Shown: piece after piece, positions 34,551 through 57,783 of the stretch
Numbering within the stretch: the stretch's first letter is position 1
Layout of the letters: each line of letters opens with the position of its first letter
Source: a virus
DNA length: 64,000 nucleotides
Reading direction: 5' to 3' (one strand)
UHGV virus genome: UHGV-0312576
Program-made: the position numbers and the translations under genes
Notes under the pieces: model-generated
Databases searched by the model: none
What the model was told of the DNA's origin: nothing
Seen by the model: only the letters and a program-made list of their open reading frames with translations

Positions 34551-34847
34551 AGCATAAAGAGAACAGAACAAACGTTCTTTTTGAGGTTGACACGAACATA
34601 TGTTTGGATTATAATAGCCATATAGCAAAAATATCTTCGAGTTAGCGAAGATACAAATAAAAAGACCCGTCCTCAAACGGTGTTGGTGCACCTCGGACGA
34701 GTCTCTTATATAATTTTTTCTAAAATGGCAGAAGCCACGCTTTATTATTACATAGTAGTATTTGTATTGTCAAGTATTTTGTTTTATATCTAAGCGATTC
34801 TGCTATTGTTCCGCGACCCAAAATTAAATAGAGAATATATCTTGATA

Positions 34848-34920
34848 GGGCTATAGCCAAGAGGTTAAGGCATCGCACTTTGACTGCGAGACTCGTGCGT
34901 TCAAATCGCACTAGCCCCAT
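34848..34920 (+). tRNA. tRNA-Gln (anticodon TTG), slightly irregular acceptor stem
   Basis: Cloverleaf drawn by hand: D arm GCC...GGC, anticodon stem TCGCA/TGCGA with loop CTTTGAC, T arm GTGCG-TTCAAAT-CGCAC. One mismatch at the acceptor end. Confidence 0.55.
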
Positions 34921-36340: not shown

Positions 36341-37750
36341 ATGGTAGAACCTATTAGGGAGCACACTTATTCACTTTCTGCGTATTTAGACGCTACCAAG
36401 GAGGAAGATATTCGGGAAGACCAGGATGTCCAACGGCTATCGGGACAGTGGGATACAAGTATGATTAATGAGTTGGTCTATACGGTTCTTACCAGGGACT
36501 ACATTCTTCCAATTATTATCGGAGAAGAGGATTTGGAAGGTGGGATGACTCAGTTATGGCTGGTAGATGGTGTACAGAGGACATCTAGTTTCATTTTATT
36601 CCGCTTTGGAAATCACAAAATCACCTCTTCAATATCGGAAGCTCACAAGACTGTAGACTATCAGGTAAGAGCTATAGATGAAGATGGGGAATTTATTAAG
36701 GATGAAGATGGGAATTTTGTATATGAAACTAGAACATGTAATTTAGTAGGAAAAACTTTTGATACACTTCCAAAGGAGCTTCAGAAGGAATTTGATAGAT
36801 TTCAGATAAAGACAGTCATTCATCAGCATTGCACAATGGAGAAGATATCAGAATTAGTGCGTCGCTATAATAACCATAAGGCAATGAATGCTGCGCAAAC
36901 AGCATTTACATATGTTGACAAATTTGCGAGACGGATTAGAAATATTACAGAGCATAAATTTTTTACAGAGTGTGATGGATTTTCTGAAAAGGAAAAGAGA
37001 AGTGGTGTATATGAACGTGTTGTATGCGAAACAACTATGACTATGTTTCATTTAGATGATTGGCAGAAGCAAAGTAAAAAGATGGGAATGTATTTAAATG
37101 AACATGCCACTGACAATGAGTTTGATATAGTGAATAGGACTTTGGATAAAGCATTTGATATGGGGCTTGCGTCATATGATCAGATTTTTACTGCAAAAGA
37201 TGCGTTTATCTGGTTTGCATTATTTCAAAAATTCAACAATATTGAACCTAGTAGCGATAAATTCACAACATTTCTCGATGCCTTCGTAAATGAGTTACAC
37301 AGTAAAGTAGTAGATGGTGTATCATTTGATGAAATTAATACCAACAGAGCCACTAAGGATAAGGCGGTAATCAAAAGAAAACTGGTATTACTTGAAAAGT
37401 TGATGAGGGATTTCTTACATATTGAAGAAGTAGCATCAGAACAGTTTATAGCTGAAAATGTTGGACTGAACATCGAATCAGTTAGAAATGATATGGACTT
37501 TTATAACCAGATGCTTGACGACCTGGAGGATAGAACAATTAAAGATGGCTCAAAACTTTTGAATCCGGATAACAGATTATCATTGCTGACGCTTGTGGCT
37601 TATACAATTGAAAATGATATTGATTTAGATGATTGGATGTTAGAGTATGCAAAGAATAATGATACATATTTTATGGATCAGAAAAAGAATTATTTACATA
37701 TGAGACAGGAACTGGAGAAGTTTCTAAATAAGAAGGTGGTAGCTGCATGA
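36341..37750 (+). CDS. DUF262 (ParB-like, DGxQR) domain protein, 469 aa
   Basis: N-terminal 'QDVQRL...WLVDGVQRTSS' matches DUF262. The long C-terminus has no HNH/DUF1524 motif. Confidence 0.55.
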   Translation: MVEPIREHTYSLSAYLDATKEEDIREDQDVQRLSGQWDTSMINELVYTVLTRDYILPIIIGEEDLEGGMTQLWLVDGVQRTSSFILFRFGNHKITSSISEAHKTVDYQVRAIDEDGEFIKDEDGNFVYETRTCNLVGKTFDTLPKELQKEFDRFQIKTVIHQHCTMEKISELVRRYNNHKAMNAAQTAFTYVDKFARRIRNITEHKFFTECDGFSEKEKRSGVYERVVCETTMTMFHLDDWQKQSKKMGMYLNEHATDNEFDIVNRTLDKAFDMGLASYDQIFTAKDAFIWFALFQKFNNIEPSSDKFTTFLDAFVNELHSKVVDGVSFDEINTNRATKDKAVIKRKLVLLEKLMRDFLHIEEVASEQFIAENVGLNIESVRNDMDFYNQMLDDLEDRTIKDGSKLLNPDNRLSLLTLVAYTIENDIDLDDWMLEYAKNNDTYFMDQKKNYLHMRQELEKFLNKKVVAA

Positions 37751-40250: not shown

Positions 40251-41444
40251 TTATTTATAAAGCTCCATCACTCTTGCATAGTAAATTCTCAAAAACTTAT
40301 TAACACCAGCCATTTTGGCTACAGTCTTGTGCTTACCTTCAGATTCTTTCTTGATGATGAACTGGTAAACAGGGTCATTCTCGGGCTTATGTACCTTGAG
40401 TGAGTGCATGACCTCATAGCAGGCTTTACGCAAGTAGGCTGAGCCACGTTTTGATATATGCCGATTGGTCCCTTCGAATTGCCCAGACTGATAAGGAGGT
40501 GCATCATTACCGGCGTAAGCATTAAGTGCTTTAGCACTGGTAAACCTCCGTACATCTCCAATCTCGGCAATCAGGATAGGGGCCAGGCGGTCTCCAACGC
40601 CATACATGGAACGGACAATGGAATACTCTGGCATTGTATAAGCGATAGACTGCATTTGTCGCAGTATCAAATCGGCTGAGGAGCTGGCTTGCTTTAACAT
40701 TAACAGGCACTGAGATAACGCAAGAGAAGTGGTAACATCGGGGCTGCGGGTGATAATGCCATCAGAGGCGGCTTGATAAATCGCAAGAGCTTTCTTTTGA
40801 GAACCCCTACATCGGTGTTTTTGGGCAAAAGCGATGTAACTATTTACAAACCGTTTTTCACCCATCTGAGAGATTTTTTCATAGCTCTGGTATTTTTCTA
40901 CGAAGTCGAAGAAAAGCGTGTTTTCCAGGTATCTGGATGAGATAGGAATGATATTTTGAATACCAGGCATGATATCATCTAACAGATTGGAGAGTTGGAC
41001 TCTGGCTTTGACTTTCATAGAAACGCTTTGACTGTATTGTCTGGACAGAAATTTTAGGTCCTCATACTTTTGGTCGGTAGGGCTGTAAGGCCTTAACTGA
41101 TATGACTTTTCTAACACAAAATGTGCAATGCGGACAGCATCCTTTTTATCAGTCTTTCCTTTTCTGATACTGTTGTCCATAAACTTTTTAACCAGGAATG
41201 GATTAATCACGAATACGGTGAATCCTGCTTCAAGCAGAGCTTTAAGAATGGGATAGTGGTAATGTCCAGTTGATTCCAAAGCGACTTTAGTCTCTTCTTG
41301 GTATGAATGAATTAAGGCTGTGAGTTGAGTAATATCGCTGATAGTATGTGAAAAGTCATGTGGCTTTGACAGAACAGTCCCATCAGAGCGAATAATTGCG
41401 ACAGTGCTTTTGGATTTAGATACATCAATACCTACAGCTAACAT
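40251..41444 (-). CDS. IS110-family transposase (distinct from IS #1)
   Basis: 'MLAVGIDVSKSKS...ALESTGHYHYPI' DEDD N-terminus. 397 aa. Confidence 0.85.
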   Translation of the reverse strand: MLAVGIDVSKSKSTVAIIRSDGTVLSKPHDFSHTISDITQLTALIHSYQEETKVALESTGHYHYPILKALLEAGFTVFVINPFLVKKFMDNSIRKGKTDKKDAVRIAHFVLEKSYQLRPYSPTDQKYEDLKFLSRQYSQSVSMKVKARVQLSNLLDDIMPGIQNIIPISSRYLENTLFFDFVEKYQSYEKISQMGEKRFVNSYIAFAQKHRCRGSQKKALAIYQAASDGIITRSPDVTTSLALSQCLLMLKQASSSADLILRQMQSIAYTMPEYSIVRSMYGVGDRLAPILIAEIGDVRRFTSAKALNAYAGNDAPPYQSGQFEGTNRHISKRGSAYLRKACYEVMHSLKVHKPENDPVYQFIIKKESEGKHKTVAKMAGVNKFLRIYYARVMELYK

Positions 41445-43762: not shown

Positions 43763-43859
43763 CTGGACAGGAAATTTTCATTTCATGCCTTTTCAACACG
43801 AGATATAGATGAAAATAGAGGAAATTAACAAGATATAGTATAAAAAAACAGGAGGTAAT

Positions 43860-45029
43860 ATGGCAGAAAGAGCATTAGCACATATTGAAAAGGTGGAATG
43901 GGTAAATCCAATCGAAGGAGCTGATAATATCGAACTTATTGGTATATTAGGTTGGGTTTGTGTTGCAAAAAAGGAGGAGTTTAGGCCGGGAGATATTGCT
44001 GTTTACATTGAGATTGATAGTAAATGTCCGGAAAATGATGAGCGATTTGCTTTTTTGGCAGCTAAACACTATAAAGTGAAAACTATGAAGTTAGGAAAAT
44101 TCAAAGTAATCAGTCAGGGGCTTGCATTACCAATTACTTTATTCCCGGAGTTTGCTGGTAAGAAAATTGGCGATGATGTAACCAATGAACTGAAAATTAC
44201 ATACTCTTCTCAGGAAGATATTAAGAGAAAATCAAATGGAGTTGATCCGGAAGCCAAGTATAAAGCAATGGCTAACAGGAAGCCTAATTTGTTTAAGAAG
44301 CCATTAGTACGGAAGATAATGAGGTACAAATTTGGACGTAAGTTAATGTTTTTGCTTTTTGGCAGAAAGAAAGATAATCCGAAGAAATTTCCTGATTGGA
44401 TTGTGAAGACTGATGAAACAAGAATTGAGAATGCTCCGTTTTATTTAAATAGTACAGATAAATGGGTTAAAACAGAGAAGTGTGATGGGACTAGCTGTAC
44501 GTATGCTGTTGACAGATTAAAAAAAGGGAAAAATAAATTTGATTTTATTGTGTGTAGTAGAAATGTACGGCAAGCAGATAGAAACCAAGAAACTTATCAC
44601 GACTCAAATATTTATTGGGAACTGGCAGATAAATATGGGATTGAAAAGATTCTTACTGATTTTGCAACAGAGAATAATTATAGCAGAGTGGTATTACAGG
44701 GAGAGGGAGTTGGTTCTGTTCAAGGAAATCCATATAAATTGAAGGAGAATGTACTATATGTATTTAATCTCATTATTGATGGAGTGAGGGCTGGAACTGT
44801 GGAAATGTCTAACTTTTGCAAGGCACATAATTTAACAAGTGTTCCAATTATTGATACTGAATGTGTATTGCCGAAGACTATGGAAGAAATGAAGCTTGAG
44901 GCTGATGGATATAGTGAGTTAAATCCAAAGGTAAAGAGAGAAGGATTTGTATATAGGAGTGTTGATGGACAACAGAGTTTTAAAAATGTTTCAAGAGAGT
45001 ATTTGTTAAAACATAATGGTAAGGAGTAA
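43860..45029 (+). CDS. ATP-dependent polynucleotide (RNA) ligase, nucleotidyltransferase superfamily
   Basis: Motif I 'TEKCDGTS' (KxDG). Motif IV-like 'VVLQGEGVG'. 389 aa. Immediately followed by a kinase-phosphatase gene. Confidence 0.55.
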   Translation: MAERALAHIEKVEWVNPIEGADNIELIGILGWVCVAKKEEFRPGDIAVYIEIDSKCPENDERFAFLAAKHYKVKTMKLGKFKVISQGLALPITLFPEFAGKKIGDDVTNELKITYSSQEDIKRKSNGVDPEAKYKAMANRKPNLFKKPLVRKIMRYKFGRKLMFLLFGRKKDNPKKFPDWIVKTDETRIENAPFYLNSTDKWVKTEKCDGTSCTYAVDRLKKGKNKFDFIVCSRNVRQADRNQETYHDSNIYWELADKYGIEKILTDFATENNYSRVVLQGEGVGSVQGNPYKLKENVLYVFNLIIDGVRAGTVEMSNFCKAHNLTSVPIIDTECVLPKTMEEMKLEADGYSELNPKVKREGFVYRSVDGQQSFKNVSREYLLKHNGKE

Positions 45030-45034
45030 ACGAG

Positions 45035-46099
45035 ATGTCAATACCAATTTTTACAATGATGGTAGGTTTACCTGGTAGTGGTAAATCTACCTACGCAGAA
45101 AAACTATCAAAAGAACGCAGCGCAATAATTTGTAGTTCTGATAAAGTTAGAGAAGATTTGTATGGAGACGAAAACTCGCAAAGCAACAATGATGAGGTTT
45201 TTAAATTATTACATAAAAGAATTAAAGAACTTCTTAAAGCAGGCGAAAGTGTTATTTATGATGCGACGAATATCAATTCCAAAAGACGTAGAGCATTTTT
45301 ATCTGAATTGAGAAGTATTCCATGTAAAAAGATTTGCGTGATAATGGCAACTTCATTGAAGAAGTGTTGTAGACAGAATAATTCTAGGAGCAGGACAGTT
45401 CCATATGAAGTTATTGAGAGAATGTATAAGAACTGGAATACCCCGTATTGGTTTGAAGGATGGGATGAGATTAAAGTTGCTTCGGAATATAAATTACCAA
45501 ACCTAATTTTTTGTTGGTTGACGGATTATATGGATTTTAATCAACAAAATCCAAATCATACTTTAACACTTGGGAAACACTCTATTGAAGTAGGGGATTA
45601 CTTTCCAGAAAATAGTTTATTGCGAGATGCTGGATACCTTCATGACTGTGGAAAGCCGTTTACAAAATCTTTTAATAACTCAAAGGGAGAAGAAACAAAT
45701 GTGGCGCATTATTATCAACATCATTGTGTAGGAGCTTATGATAGTTTGTTTTATGACTATTCAGAAGGCGTTGATAGATTAGACGGCTCTATTCTAATTA
45801 ATTTGCACATGATGCCTTATTTTTGGGAGAAAGACAAAGAGTACGGGGAGAAGACAAGGTTGAAATATAAGAAGCTATGGGGTGAGGAACTATATAACAA
45901 TGTGATGAAACTGCATGAGGCTGTGGAGTGGTGCCAACAGCATGGTTTGGAATTTGATGCTATTAACGAGAATCTACCGGAGACACTAGAGTGGCTTGGC
46001 GGAACTGAAAGTAGGAAAATTCACGCAGATGTCTTTATTGATGACAAGGCTGTTAATAAGCCAAAATATTGTGTGCCATATAAGGAGTGTACCATGTAA
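45035..46099 (+). CDS. polynucleotide kinase-phosphatase (P-loop kinase + HD phosphohydrolase)
   Basis: N-terminal Walker A 'GLPGSGKST'. C-terminal HD motif 'H...YLHDCGK'. Confidence 0.65.
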   Translation: MSIPIFTMMVGLPGSGKSTYAEKLSKERSAIICSSDKVREDLYGDENSQSNNDEVFKLLHKRIKELLKAGESVIYDATNINSKRRRAFLSELRSIPCKKICVIMATSLKKCCRQNNSRSRTVPYEVIERMYKNWNTPYWFEGWDEIKVASEYKLPNLIFCWLTDYMDFNQQNPNHTLTLGKHSIEVGDYFPENSLLRDAGYLHDCGKPFTKSFNNSKGEETNVAHYYQHHCVGAYDSLFYDYSEGVDRLDGSILINLHMMPYFWEKDKEYGEKTRLKYKKLWGEELYNNVMKLHEAVEWCQQHGLEFDAINENLPETLEWLGGTESRKIHADVFIDDKAVNKPKYCVPYKECTM

Positions 46100-46584
46100 T
46101 GGAGCAGCTGAATTACCTTAAACAAAAGATGATTCCTATTGTGAATCAATGTCTGAAGATACATGGCGGTGGAGAAAGCTATTTTGATGAATTAGACGGT
46201 CTGATTAAGAATGACATTGAGTTAATGGTTACATATCTTAAATATGCAGTAGAAAAAGAGAAGATTGAGAATGTGGTTGTATCTGGAGAAATTGGTCTTA
46301 TATTATCTAAGCTAATCAGCAAAAAGATTATTCCCATGGATGTTAATTTAATATGTCTGAATGGAGGGCTGCGTAAGGGGGAGGAGCCGGTGGGAACTAT
46401 CCCGCGTTACCAATCGTTCAAAGCCATCTTTTTCGATGACAGCTATTATAGTGGTAAGACGGCTATGGCAGTTCATGATTACATACATAAGTGTGGAGGA
46501 ACCATTGTGAAGAATTACGTTTTCTACGATGGTTGCTTAAAGAAACATGATGATGTGGATAGTCTATATCGGTATTACAAATAG
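46099..46584 (+). CDS. phosphoribosyltransferase-like domain protein
   Basis: PRPP-binding signature 'AIFFDDSYYSGKTAMAV'. TAATG overlap with the upstream stop. Confidence 0.5.
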   Translation: MEQLNYLKQKMIPIVNQCLKIHGGGESYFDELDGLIKNDIELMVTYLKYAVEKEKIENVVVSGEIGLILSKLISKKIIPMDVNLICLNGGLRKGEEPVGTIPRYQSFKAIFFDDSYYSGKTAMAVHDYIHKCGGTIVKNYVFYDGCLKKHDDVDSLYRYYK

Positions 46585-46624
46585 GCTGAAATTTCGGTTT
46601 CGTGTGAGGAGGTGGGTGGCGAAA

Positions 46625-46828
46625 ATGTCAATTTTGATGATTGAAGACCAGCTTGTAACGGTTAAGGGATCAGAAGTTCTGAAAGCGCAATTTGAGAATT
46701 ATTGTAGTTGGTGTTGGGGACACGGATACGGGAACTGTGATATGTGTAAAAGGGTTTATCACAGATATTATATTCCGATTAGAAAAAGAGAACTTCAAGA
46801 AAAATTGGGATTAAATGATATAAGATGA
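46625..46828 (+). CDS. small Cys/His-rich protein (67 aa)
   Basis: GGAGGTGGGTGG RBS. 'CSWCWGHGYGNCDMCK'. Confidence 0.45.
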   Translation: MSILMIEDQLVTVKGSEVLKAQFENYCSWCWGHGYGNCDMCKRVYHRYYIPIRKRELQEKLGLNDIR

Positions 46829-46869
46829 AAGTCGAGTTTCTTGTGCTAATAGAAATGGGGTGACAGAAA

Positions 46870-47205
46870 ATGGAGTGTCCATATTGTGGTAAAGAATTAA
46901 ACTGTGTAGACCATCATGGGACTGGAAGGCCGGAATGTTATTATGGAACGGCTGCTAACGGCATATATTATCCATCAACATATAACAAACTTGGTGACAT
47001 TTATAAATGCAGTAACTCTTTTGGGTTCAACAACAAAAGCGAAGCTATGGATTATATTAACGCTCAATCAGAAGCAGATTTAGAGAAATATATTAATGAT
47101 AATGAACTGGAAGACTGGATGGATATCGTCTGTGAGAGTGAAACATTTAATGAGAACTTCTACACAGACAATAATGAAAATTTATTTGAGGGTTATCCAT
47201 GTTAG
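46870..47205 (+). CDS. hypothetical protein with N-terminal CxxC (111 aa)
   Basis: ORF track. Confidence 0.5.
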   Translation: MECPYCGKELNCVDHHGTGRPECYYGTAANGIYYPSTYNKLGDIYKCSNSFGFNNKSEAMDYINAQSEADLEKYINDNELEDWMDIVCESETFNENFYTDNNENLFEGYPC

Positions 47206-47213
47206 GAGGTTGA

Positions 47214-47612
47214 ATGAAAGAACTTAGAATTATCATAGCTGGTGGGAGAGATTTTGACGATTTTGAATTACTTTACAAAAGTGTTGAGAAAATTCAGCTT
47301 GATTATGTTGATAGATATTTTGATGAATTATCAAGAGTTTGCATTGTAAGTGGAAACGCAAGAGGAGCTGATAAACTTGGCGAATTATATGCGAAGAGAA
47401 TGGGATTGCACATTTATATATGTCCAGCAGCGTGGGATTTATACGGAAAGAGTGCTGGTTACAGAAGAAATGCTGAAATGGCAAAGTTTGCTTCTGAAGA
47501 TGGTAACATTGGCGTACTGATTGCATTCTGGGACGGTAAGAGTCGAGGAACTAAACATATGATTGATTTGGCGAAGAGATATGGACTGAAAGTACATGCG
47601 GTGAACTACTAG
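47214..47612 (+). CDS. SLOG-superfamily (DUF2493/YspA-like) protein
   Basis: 'IIIAGGRDF', 'SGNARGADKLGELYA', 'PAAWDLYGKSAGYRRN' and 'AFWDGKSRGTKHMIDLA' match DUF2493. Confidence 0.6.
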   Translation: MKELRIIIAGGRDFDDFELLYKSVEKIQLDYVDRYFDELSRVCIVSGNARGADKLGELYAKRMGLHIYICPAAWDLYGKSAGYRRNAEMAKFASEDGNIGVLIAFWDGKSRGTKHMIDLAKRYGLKVHAVNY

Positions 47613-54683: not shown

Positions 54684-55463
54684 ATGGCAATTATAGGAGC
54701 AATTTTAGGTGACATAGCTGGTTCCAGATGGGAGTTTCGTAGACCGAAAGGTTTAGACTGGGAACACATTGATTTATTTACAGATGATTGTTTCCTCACG
54801 GACGATACGGTTTTGACCGTAGCAACAAAATATGCTTTGCAGAATAATGTTTCATTCAAAGAAGCGTACCACAAGTTTGGAAATAAATATCCAAATTGCA
54901 GTTACGGCTGTGGCTTCGAGTCCTGGTTGGGGTCTAAGTGGAGCAAGCCGTACAATAGTTTTGGTAATGGTGCTGCTATGAGAGTATCACCTGTTGTAGA
55001 CTTATGTGAGTCACGATTAGAGGTAAGTTACGTTTCTAAAGAAAGTGCATTATGTACTCATAATCATCCAGAGGGAATTAAAGGAGCCAAGGTTACGGCA
55101 ACGTGTGCCTGGATGGCAAAGAGAGGCGCATCGAAGAAAGAAATTGAAGAATATGCCTGTAGAAAATATCCGTCTGATGAGTATATGTTTCCGGTGTCGA
55201 TGTCTTTAAAAGAATTAAGAGAAAAATATAGATGGAACGAAACTTGCCAAGGAAGTGTGCCAGTAGCAATCAGATGTTTTCTGGATAGTGAGGATTATGA
55301 GAGCTTCATCAGAAATGTGTTGAGTCTGCCATGTGATACCGATACATTGTGTGCTATTGGTGGAGGTATTGCTGAAGAATTTTATCATGGGACAGGCTTT
55401 AATGCGGACAAGTTGATGAGAGAATACTTGGATGAATATTTATATGAAATTGTGAAAGCGTAA
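54684..55463 (+). CDS. ADP-ribosylglycohydrolase family protein (DraG/ARH-like)
   Basis: 'GAILGDIAGS', 'FTDDT', 'GNGAAMRVSP' and 'GGDTDT'-type 'CDTDTLCAIGGG' motifs. Confidence 0.65.
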   Translation: MAIIGAILGDIAGSRWEFRRPKGLDWEHIDLFTDDCFLTDDTVLTVATKYALQNNVSFKEAYHKFGNKYPNCSYGCGFESWLGSKWSKPYNSFGNGAAMRVSPVVDLCESRLEVSYVSKESALCTHNHPEGIKGAKVTATCAWMAKRGASKKEIEEYACRKYPSDEYMFPVSMSLKELREKYRWNETCQGSVPVAIRCFLDSEDYESFIRNVLSLPCDTDTLCAIGGGIAEEFYHGTGFNADKLMREYLDEYLYEIVKA

Positions 55464-57084: not shown

Positions 57085-57563
57085 CGAATAGTTAATTAAG
57101 ATTATTCACTGTTTACTGAAAACTTAAAACTACAACTCATTAGACTTTTGCAGATATAGTCTCATGTAAAGCGAAAAAGAAATCTGTAAATATAATGCAA
57201 ATATTATCAAATGAAATTAAAATCTATGATAAATATTTGTATAATTTCACAAGTAAAACAGTACATATAACTTGGCATAAAATGGTGCGACCATTAGCTA
57301 AGTACATGTAAGTATTATGAAATTATACTACTATACTATAAATTATTGCTTCCAGATGCGAGAAGCGTGTACTGTAAAGCTTAAAGTTATAAGGCTCAAA
57401 AAGTAAAGCTGAAAATTCAAAGTTTAAATCATGAGTCAAAGTTGAAATAGTAAATAGTAAAGATATAAAGTTTTATCAAATCCTTGATATACAGTTTAGC
57501 ATAGTTGTACTTGGCTATAAGCATCTGCAAGGCTGGTAAATAGTGAGTAATCTATAAAAATAA

Positions 57564-57637
57564 TGGGCATTCGCCAAGCGGTTAAGGCACAGGACTTTGA
57601 CTCCTGCATTACGTTGGTTCGAATCCAACATGCCCAG
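57564..57637 (+). tRNA. tRNA-Gln (anticodon TTG)
   Basis: Acceptor TGGGCAT/ATGCCCA. D arm GCC..GGC. Anticodon stem CAGGA/TCCTG with loop CTTTGAC. T arm GTTGG-TTCGAAT-CCAAC. Confidence 0.75.
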
Positions 57638-57640
57638 TTC

Positions 57641-57709
57641 TCACCATAGTTAGTCCCATTAGCTAACACAGCTAAACCGCCAGGGACGGCGGTGGCTATG
57701 GTGATACCA
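57641..57709 (+). other. tRNA-sized, non-canonical hairpin element sitting between two tRNAs
   Basis: 8-bp terminal stem TCACCATAG/CTATGGTGA encloses two hairpins (AGCT-aacac-AGCT and CCGCC-agggacg-GGCGG). No standard D, anticodon or T arms. The 3' end is ...ACCA. Confidence 0.3.
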
Positions 57710-57783
57710 GGATCATTAGCTCAGTTGGTCAGAGCATCCGGCTCATAACCGGACGGTCATCTGTTCGAGTCAGATATGATCCA
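57710..57783 (+). tRNA. tRNA-Met (anticodon CAT; could equally be Ile2/lysidine type)
   Basis: Acceptor GGATCAT/ATGATCC. D arm GCTC..GAGC. Anticodon stem TCCGG/CCGGA with loop CTCATAA. T arm ATCTG-TTCGAGT-CAGAT. Confidence 0.8.

Follow-up and report, generated by a model that had tools for sequence, protein, structure and literature searches.

A conserved cassette of an Rnl5-type RNA ligase and a polynucleotide kinase-HD protein in a temperate phage of Enterocloster bolteae

Pnkp and Rnl1 of bacteriophage T4 reverse the damage done by the anticodon nuclease PrrC. Phage RM378 provides the biochemical precedent for a polynucleotide kinase/phosphatase that combines a kinase with an HD domain, and enzymes of this kinase + HD type have been proposed as a subfamily of Pnkp. 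Phage RNA-repair systems were reviewed by Iyer et al. (2021), with HD-type phosphatases as the rarer choice. The Rnl5 family of RNA ligases is defined by NgrRnl and Deinococcus DraRnl; these enzymes seal 3′-OH/5′-PO4 nicks in duplexes, strictly need RNA on the 3′-OH side, and accept RNA and DNA alike in the remaining strands, and their physiological role has been described as "uncharted." Phage RNA heal-and-seal modules have long been known (T4 Pnkp/Rnl1, RM378, and comparative surveys), and the locus described here opens no new category. It occupies positions 43860–47612 of a 64,000-nt stretch of UHGV virus genome UHGV-0312576 (the whole stretch is called the window) and holds, in this order, genes for an RNA ligase, a kinase-HD protein, a phosphoribosyltransferase (PRTase)-like protein, two small Cys-rich open reading frames (ORFs), and a SLOG protein. 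The host element is a temperate phage, ~156 kb in IMG/VR, that is integrated in E. bolteae (Lachnospiraceae) and is also found on metagenomic contigs from many samples.

Like T4 Pnkp and Rnl1, the locus brings together a phage-encoded 5′-kinase, a 3′-phosphoesterase, and an ATP-dependent ligase, and its kinase fold is related to that of T4 Pnk. It differs in that the T4 phosphatase is a HAD domain and T4 Rnl1 acts on tRNA loops, whereas here an HD domain accompanies an Rnl5-type ligase that needs a nick in a duplex. A first-pass annotation made from the sequence alone had picked out a KxDG ligase (TEKCDGTS), a kinase-HD protein, and PRTase-like and SLOG ORFs, and all four are present where it had placed them. 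The profile classification that it had proposed as a check gave matches well beyond chance and placed the ligase with RNA_ligase/Rnl5 (DRB0094-type), the kinase with AAA_33/Pnkp, the HD domain with the HDIG type, and the SLOG protein with PF10686. Its description of the ligase as the counterpart of T4 Rnl1 did not survive, because Rnl5 enzymes seal duplex nicks and not open loops. The features of the repair genes are as follows:

43772–43859, + strand: leader and ribosome-binding region, which travels with the cassette and forms the left edge of a 99.6%-identical block
43860–45029, + strand: RNA ligase, 389 aa, with an OB domain, a ~55-aa insert, and a nucleotidyltransferase domain; TEKCDGTS is residues 205–212
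45035–45922, + strand: polynucleotide 5′-kinase and HD domain, part of a 354-aa ORF (45035–46099); kinase at residues 1–150, HD at ~170–296
45917–45923, + strand: deletion/recombination junction GAGGCTG, a 7-nt microhomology common to the 3′ end of the HD sequence and the middle of a HAD gene
45924–46099, + strand: in-frame remnant of a BT0820-family HAD protein, residues 297–354, without the DxDGT nucleophile motif and predicted to be unfolded

The ligase and kinase-HD genes are one conserved, horizontally shuffled two-gene cassette. In a blastn comparison, positions 43772–45923 were 99.58% identical over 2153 nt to IMG/VR contig UViG_3300045988_164015 (156.5 kb; locus L027, 4913–7064). This block runs from 88 nt 5′ of the ligase gene to the fusion junction, and the genes on both sides of it differ in the IMG/VR contig, whose kinase carries a G14V substitution in the P-loop. 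A kinase-HD gene lies downstream of this type of ligase in 70 of 80 IMG/VR viral contigs (mostly 90–220 kb), with a gap of at most 60 nt in 54 of the 70 and of 61–1200 nt in the other 16. The same pairing occurs in the Lachnospiraceae genomes of Eubacterium segne, Lacrimispora, and Konateibacter, and cultured large Bacillus phages have an "RNA ligase" directly followed by a full-length kinase-HD protein annotated as "polynucleotide kinase." In sister phages (L008–L013), an orthologous kinase-HD protein (72–88% identity) is preceded in the same slot by an Rnl1-type ligase (PF09511), sometimes together with a second, PF09414 ligase, so that the T4 type of ligase is indeed paired with this kinase-HD enzyme in the wider group. 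Of the contextual evidence, this exchange of one ligase type for another ahead of the same healing enzyme argues most strongly that the kinase-HD protein heals RNA ends, and the arrangement fits the phage RNA-repair systems described by Iyer et al. (2021).

Other partners were seen at more distant loci. In a metagenome-assembled genome of Bacilli (L025, 2732–6926), a distant Rnl5 relative comes immediately after NAPRTase-, NMNAT-, and NAD-synthetase-like genes (names assigned by inspection of their translations) together with a 149-aa NADAR-like ORF, and a calcineurin-type phosphoesterase (PF00149), a different healing partner, is encoded 1.2 kb downstream. A 267-aa protein between the Rnl5 ligase and the kinase-HD protein in L019 and L024 had been guessed to be an RlaP nucleotidyltransferase; it gave no Pfam match, and the assignment is not claimed. 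The Rnl1-type ligase gene is split in L012 (4497–5806) and whole in the near-identical L013 (4413–5717), which reflects either a frameshift or a sequencing error.

The ligase gene begins 6 nt after an AGGAGG sequence. Its product matched PF21189 (PHA02142 OB domain; 6.9e-23, residues 6–92) and PF09414 (RNA_ligase; 1.3e-17, residues 201–375) in Pfam and is labeled "RNA ligase" in PHROGs. Against the PDB, NgrRnl from Naegleria (5cot) was matched at 1e-35 in an alignment that spans both domains. The published active site of NgrRnl was transferred to the window ligase through the HMMER alignment, and 10 of the 10 mapped residues are conserved (NgrRnl residue first, window residue second):

R4, R4 (Arg of the OB domain)
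D53, D53 (Asp of the OB domain)
T145, T184
R149, R188 (the Arg that contacts the gamma-phosphate)
K170, K207 (the Lys nucleophile of KxDG)
D172, D209
R190, R234
E227, E282 (motif III)
E312, E361 (motif IV)
K326, K375 (motif V)

NgrRnl K121 has no aligned equivalent, as the insert starts there. The protein ends 14 residues past the motif V Lys375 and therefore has no C-terminal domain. On these alignments, the ligase is assigned to the Rnl5 type (DraRnl/NgrRnl), with which it shares an N-terminal OB domain, a nucleotidyltransferase domain, the lack of a C-terminal domain, and the active-site residues; Lys207 is the predicted AMP acceptor. It differs from NgrRnl and DraRnl in its ~55-aa interdomain insert and in its TIGR02306 score, which at 91.2 bits missed the equivalog cut-off of 151.15 and identifies it, by sequence, either as diverged within the curated set or as sister to it. 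A further difference from DraRnl is its operonic pairing with a kinase-HD protein. The first-pass annotation had named DNA specificity of the ligase as a finding that would overturn its reading; by homology the enzyme is predicted not to be DNA-specific (Rnl5, RNA 3′-OH type), and the window encodes a separate Ku and DNA ligase. The latter two form a phage-borne pair resembling nonhomologous end joining systems at 7878–9601 (+), where Ku (PF02735) is followed by a 311-aa ATP-dependent DNA ligase.

The 354-aa kinase-HD protein has a P-loop, GLPGSGKST, at residue 11 and the motif LHDCGKP at residue 202. The kinase matched AAA_33 in Pfam (9e-25); the protein is labeled "polynucleotide kinase" in PHROGs and also matched bacterial Pnkp, PSTK, and HDIG models. 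The best solved relatives of the kinase by sequence are the kinase domain of Clostridium thermocellum CthPnkp (1.4e-17), PSTK, Pnkp1, and T4 Pnk, and mammalian PNKP is also among the closest. The AlphaFold model is confident over residues 1–300 (predicted local distance difference test [pLDDT] >90). A Foldseek search with the full model returned polynucleotide kinases (CthPnkp, ~1e-9); all matches were to the kinase domain and none to the HD domain. Across 37 aligned homologues, K17, D36, and R39 never vary, and at least 90% of the sequences carry S18, R118, and R120. Judged by these comparisons, residues 1–150 are a polynucleotide kinase in which the catalytic set of P-loop Lys/Ser, Asp, Arg, and lid Arg is complete. 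Residues ~170–296 are an HD domain of the HDIG/CCA-enzyme type, with H175, H203-D204, H229, and H258 present. The protein shares with the RM378 polynucleotide kinase/phosphatase an N-terminal P-loop kinase, a C-terminal HD phosphoesterase, and an adjoining RNA ligase gene, and the polynucleotide kinases of the large Bacillus phages Kirov, vB_BcoS-136, and Thrax1 have the same kinase + HD layout beside an RNA ligase. Identity to the Bacillus phage proteins is 31–34%; the likeness to RM378 is one of domain layout. The window allele departs from both in lacking the last five HD residues, in place of which it carries a 58-aa HAD remnant.

This departure is a gene fusion. The search for kinase-HD homologues yielded more than 2000, of which the closest have ~303 aa and the C terminus ...LHEADKxAH; the window protein departs from them right after LHEA, at residue 296, and has a further 58 residues. 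The Asp after LHEA was kept in 119 of 119 other homologues retrieved and is Val in the window protein. In intact homologues, the PF01966 match extends to position 112 of the 116 in the model, at most three residues from the C terminus, and this extent, together with the conservation of the Asp, makes it most likely that the H...HD...D set has lost its last metal ligand. An intact 301-aa allele (P0243), identical to the window protein through residue 296 and ending in DMRAH, has the full set, which is incomplete in the 354-aa allele. With the HD domain alone as the query, the only profile match in the PDB was marginal (E 0.07), to the HD-like part of the A-adding enzyme of Aquifex, and this alignment stopped short of the terminal Asp.

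The origin of the tail is seen in contig L012, which encodes an intact 117-aa HAD protein with a DFDGT nucleophile motif immediately upstream of its PRTase-like gene. With residues 55–117 of this protein the window tail shares 84% identity. At the DNA level, window positions 45043–45923 are 87% identical to the L012 kinase-HD gene and positions 45914–46600 are 80% identical to the 3′ half of the HAD gene and the PRTase gene. Against both L012 and L107, a locus on the same contig as L027, the left homology stops at 45923 and the right homology starts at 45914, and they meet in GAGGCTG. The exact 354-aa protein occurs in 300 blocks of the collection, on 143 contigs, and in RefSeq as WP_002572313.1 (E. 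bolteae), so the fusion is not an assembly error; P0243 is found on 134 contigs. Read from these alignments, the fusion is the product of illegitimate recombination at the 7-nt microhomology, in which the last five HD codons were lost. A reading of the C-terminal region as a T4-like kinase-HAD Pnkp was rejected: the tail matches only positions 47–97 of 137 in the HAD model NF046079 (BT0820-family), so a T4-type HAD domain with its DxDxT motif is absent and the nucleophile half is missing. Thus, both candidate 3′-phosphatases (HD and HAD) are damaged in the window copy, the kinase and ligase are intact, and this allele probably has reduced 3′-end-healing activity or none. The RefSeq "ATP-binding protein" WP_002572313.1 is accordingly a chimera of two genes, which calls for caution in annotation, and the 301-aa and 354-aa alleles provide a natural experiment on the need for the terminal Asp and the phosphatase.

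The most likely function of the pair, favored here with reasonable though far from full confidence, is a heal-and-seal mechanism that reverses RNA cleavage in infection. In such a mechanism, the kinase domain would phosphorylate 5′-OH ends, the HD domain of intact alleles would open and remove 2′,3′-cyclic or 3′-phosphates, and the Rnl5 ligase, adenylylated on Lys207, would seal the resulting 3′-OH/5′-PO4 nick where the broken RNA sits in a duplex. A likely use would be to undo cleavage of tRNA or rRNA inflicted during infection, and a role in counter-defense is an inference. With the 3′-end step impaired, the window allele would depend on breaks that already have a 3′-OH or on a host phosphatase. 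The first-pass proposal of an RNA heal-and-seal pair is thus upheld by the Rnl5-type ligase, the conserved cassette, the interchange with Rnl1, and the separate Ku and DNA ligase, and is weakened for this copy by the loss of the HD Asp. Several observations weigh on the other side. No ribotoxin was identified in the host or in competing elements. Because Rnl5 enzymes need a duplex nick, the classic T4-type break in an anticodon loop may not be a substrate. The only physiological datum for the family, the radiation sensitivity of a Deinococcus rnl knockout, points to DNA-associated repair. The lost Asp is only a probable metal ligand, and the protein retains a second invariant Asp, D267; the tail's low pLDDT (27–38 over residues 310–354 of the AlphaFold2 model) in part reflects the absence of aligned sequences there. 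Finally, the fused and intact alleles are equally common (on 143 and 134 contigs, respectively), so the fusion is at least tolerated.

The remaining genes of the locus lie downstream of the fusion:

46099–46584, + strand: PRTase-fold protein, 161 aa from its ATG, with a canonical phosphoribosyl pyrophosphate (PRPP) loop; overlaps the upstream ORF
46625–46828, + strand: small Cys-rich, Zn-ribbon-like ORF, 67 aa on public contigs and 93 aa from its first ATG (46547)
46870–47205, + strand: small Zn-ribbon-like ORF, 111 aa, starting CPYCG
47214–47612, + strand: SLOG protein of the YAcAr/DUF2493 family, 132 aa, PF10686

The PRTase-like protein gave no match in Pfam (including PF00156), PHROGs, or NCBIfam. 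Its relatives number 131, and PF00156 was found on only 1 of the 120 that were listed. An AlphaFold model built from 29 homologues had a pLDDT of 92, and in a Foldseek search with this model the top 50 of 50 PDB matches were PRTases or PRTase-fold proteins (E ~2e-5, template modeling score ~0.5), including APRT, OPRT, PyrR, and an archaeal purine PRTase; two of the entries were unnamed. The PRPP loop, AIFFDDSYYSGKT, is canonical (four hydrophobic residues, DD, any three residues, then S/T-G-x-T) and invariant in the family (FxDDSYYSGKT). The model therefore assigns the protein to the type I phosphoribosyltransferase fold, as had been guessed from the sequence. The SLOG/DUF2493 assignment of the neighboring gene also proved correct: its product matched PF10686 (YAcAr) at 4.4e-12 and 46.1 bits, above the gathering score of 28.2, and phrog_289 at 2e-29; sequence searches of the PDB gave only chance-level matches (E >0.3). 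The YAcAr SLOG family is predicted to act on NAD-derived molecules. Neither of the two small ORFs had a Pfam, PHROG, or NCBIfam match, and for the 111-aa ORF no gene is called on the otherwise identical contigs L003 and L004, although its sequence is still detected by tblastn at 100% in L004.

The gene order of relatives separates these genes from the repair cassette. In L107, the closest intact relative, a kinase-HD gene is followed by a P-type cation ATPase, three TerD genes (PF02342, E down to 1e-79), PspA/IM30, HAD, PRTase, an ORF, SLOG, and, further on, a PAPS reductase. Compared with this layout, ~5.8 kb is missing from the window. The HAD-PRTase-...-SLOG order also occurs in L012 and L013, so that the SLOG gene is syntenic downstream of the PRTase gene in all three. 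The stop codon of the window kinase-HD ORF and the start codon of the PRTase ORF overlap in TAATG (46097–46101); this overlap was inherited from the HAD gene and is no sign that the PRTase was coupled to the kinase-HD gene. Iyer et al. (2021) described PRTase and HAD proteins paired with TerD in Ter-type systems and proposed that they make a nucleoside-like metabolite. Ter-type clusters, which also include membrane-stress proteins, are known from bacteria and from some large phages. L107, from a gut phage, resembles such clusters, with PRTase and HAD genes directly after the P-type ATPase, the three TerD genes, and PspA. The window differs in having no TerD, PspA, or ATPase gene, a destroyed HAD gene, and an orphan PRTase gene, which is read, from these comparisons, as the remaining half of a HAD-PRTase pair whose former, translationally coupled partner was the HAD protein.

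Elsewhere the PRTase family keeps variable company. Among 49 viral loci with a PRTase relative, the recurring neighbors are Band_7/flotillin or Thg1 directly upstream, TerD with a P-type ATPase, a PARG...PRTase-YorF arrangement, and a nearby RlaP, and many loci have none of these. In a distant relative, L015, the gene upstream of the PRTase was examined as a possible HAD gene and is not one. In L006 (11065–13326; GCA_000371645.1, KB851154.1), the PRTase-like gene is broken after ~95 codons by a DDE transposase.

Three other explanations were weighed against RNA repair by the ligase and kinase-HD pair. One is that the PRTase-like and SLOG proteins belong with the pair in a single four-gene counter-defense cassette that would both repair RNA and interfere with nucleotide signaling, which is close to what the first-pass annotation had proposed. 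The genes are co-directional with no terminator-like site at 43.8–49.4 kb, the kinase-HD and PRTase ORFs overlap, ~13 of the 49 viral loci have a PRTase-like gene no more than a few kb away from kinase-HD, Thg1, or RlaP, and in Bacillus phage Thrax1 a DUF2493 gene is 4 kb from the RNA ligase/polynucleotide kinase pair. In the scan for promoters and terminators, counts did not exceed those of shuffled sequence, so the scan could not define the limits of operons. The high-identity block stops at the fusion junction, short of both genes; the ORF overlap stems from the HAD gene; a PRTase gene is present within 5 kb in only 1 of the 80 Rnl5-ligase loci; and many PRTase loci have no RNA-repair gene and have Band_7/flotillin, TerD/P-type ATPase, or PARG...YorF instead. 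PADLOC returned no match for the ligase, kinase-HD, PRTase-like, or SLOG proteins or the small ORFs, although its library consists of defense systems and has little bearing on anti-defense. The end of the block, the source of the overlap, the order in L107, where both genes lie beyond the TerD/PspA/P-type ATPase cluster and the PRTase gene is coupled to HAD, and the variable neighbors argue that the PRTase is not part of the repair cassette. A four-gene cassette is therefore very unlikely; membership of the PRTase and SLOG genes is not supported, they form a separate neighboring unit, and adjacency alone is no ground for assigning either to the repair system.

A second explanation is that the pair serves repair of phage or host DNA, with the kinase-HD protein healing 5′-OH/3′-P DNA ends and the Rnl5 ligase sealing nicks terminated by a 3′ ribonucleotide, as might arise from ribonucleotide fill-in or RNA priming. 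DraRnl does not discriminate between DNA and RNA in the 5′-PO4 and template strands, its knockout slows genome reassembly after irradiation, and a Deinococcus HD-kinase (DR_B0098) and PARG are encoded a few genes away on the same replicon; the window itself encodes Ku and an ATP-dependent DNA ligase. These two genes, however, lie 35 kb off on the other side of the element. Moreover, the same kinase-HD orthologue stands beside Rnl1-type ligases at the same position in sister phages, and the tRNA-repair enzyme Thg1 and the RNA-ligase-associated nucleotidyltransferase RlaP occur in related accessory regions. A DNA-repair function is accordingly unlikely, though it is the main rival. Somewhat less probable again is that the module is decaying cargo under relaxed selection and that the pair no longer benefits this prophage. 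Signs of decay are present: the HD domain is truncated, the HAD is a remnant, a Ter-like cluster was removed by deletion, an IS110 element (40251–41444) lies within the gene array, the PRTase gene of one sequenced strain is split by the DDE transposase, and the Rnl1 gene is split in L012. Against this, neither the ligase nor the kinase frame is broken and both keep their full sets of catalytic residues, the fused allele recurs widely and without change on its 143 contigs, and the fusion is in frame and keeps the translational coupling to the next gene. RNA repair thus remains the preferred account of the ligase and kinase-HD pair.

The wider value of the locus lies partly in the ligase. An Rnl5-type duplex-nick ligase is a regular partner of the kinase-HD protein in a large group of human-gut Lachnospiraceae phages, and this gives a testable biological setting to a family without an established role. 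A bolder and rather improbable extension would be that the Rnl5 and kinase-HD pair, on at least 70 Lachnospiraceae phage contigs (~90–220 kb), is dedicated to the repair of breaks in base-paired RNA, such as tRNA stems and rRNA, and answers a putative ribotoxin of gut Firmicutes. If so, this would be the first natural function for the Rnl5 family, and the near-equal numbers of intact alleles and of HD-clipped, Ter-less alleles in E. bolteae prophages would reflect selection and not drift, for example because the toxin leaves 3′-OH ends or because the Ter-like cargo is costly.

The locus is set in an unbroken co-directional run of ORFs on the + strand, at 43.1–50.7 kb in the ORF list. The first-pass annotation had called this part of the window an "anti-defence island," a fair descriptive guess for parts of it and a loose label for the whole, since the 43–50 kb stretch is a mosaic accessory region of the phage. 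An Rfam search gave no match inside 43860–47612. DNA searches against cultured phages returned only short matches of 70–74%, in the methyltransferase and DUF2493 genes, so the phage has no close cultured relative. The window also encodes an integrase, a ParB-like protein, a sigma factor, an antirepressor, an HNH endonuclease, and an ADP-ribosylglycohydrolase. The last of these (54684–55463, +) lies in the same accessory array as a GmrSD_N/NsnA-like protein (36341–37750, +), and NADAR, PARG, and YpsA genes are found at comparable positions in relatives. A PAPS-reductase-fold protein (PF01507; 49634–50635, +) has weak similarity to the BrxP (1.8e-16), SspD, and DndC models, suggestive of a function linked to DNA modification and not to sulfur assimilation.

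Two IS110-family transposase genes are present, at 40251–41444 (–) and 2310–3596 (–); the former interrupts the + strand array and is found in 6 of 6 public contigs encoding the exact kinase-HD protein. A 402-aa RelA/SpoT-domain protein (6435–7643, –), encoded on the opposite strand beside a P22-type antirepressor where the element has its edge, matched the PADLOC candidate defense model PDC-S33 (E 8e-121). The phage carries tRNA-Gln twice and tRNA-Met once: one tRNA-Gln(ttg) is at 34846–34920 and the other forms a pair with tRNA-Met(cat) at 57564–57783. A RAGATH-27 RNA (Rfam RF03100; 93.7 bits against a gathering score of 76.1) was identified at 57105–57188 (+), ~380 nt upstream of this pair.

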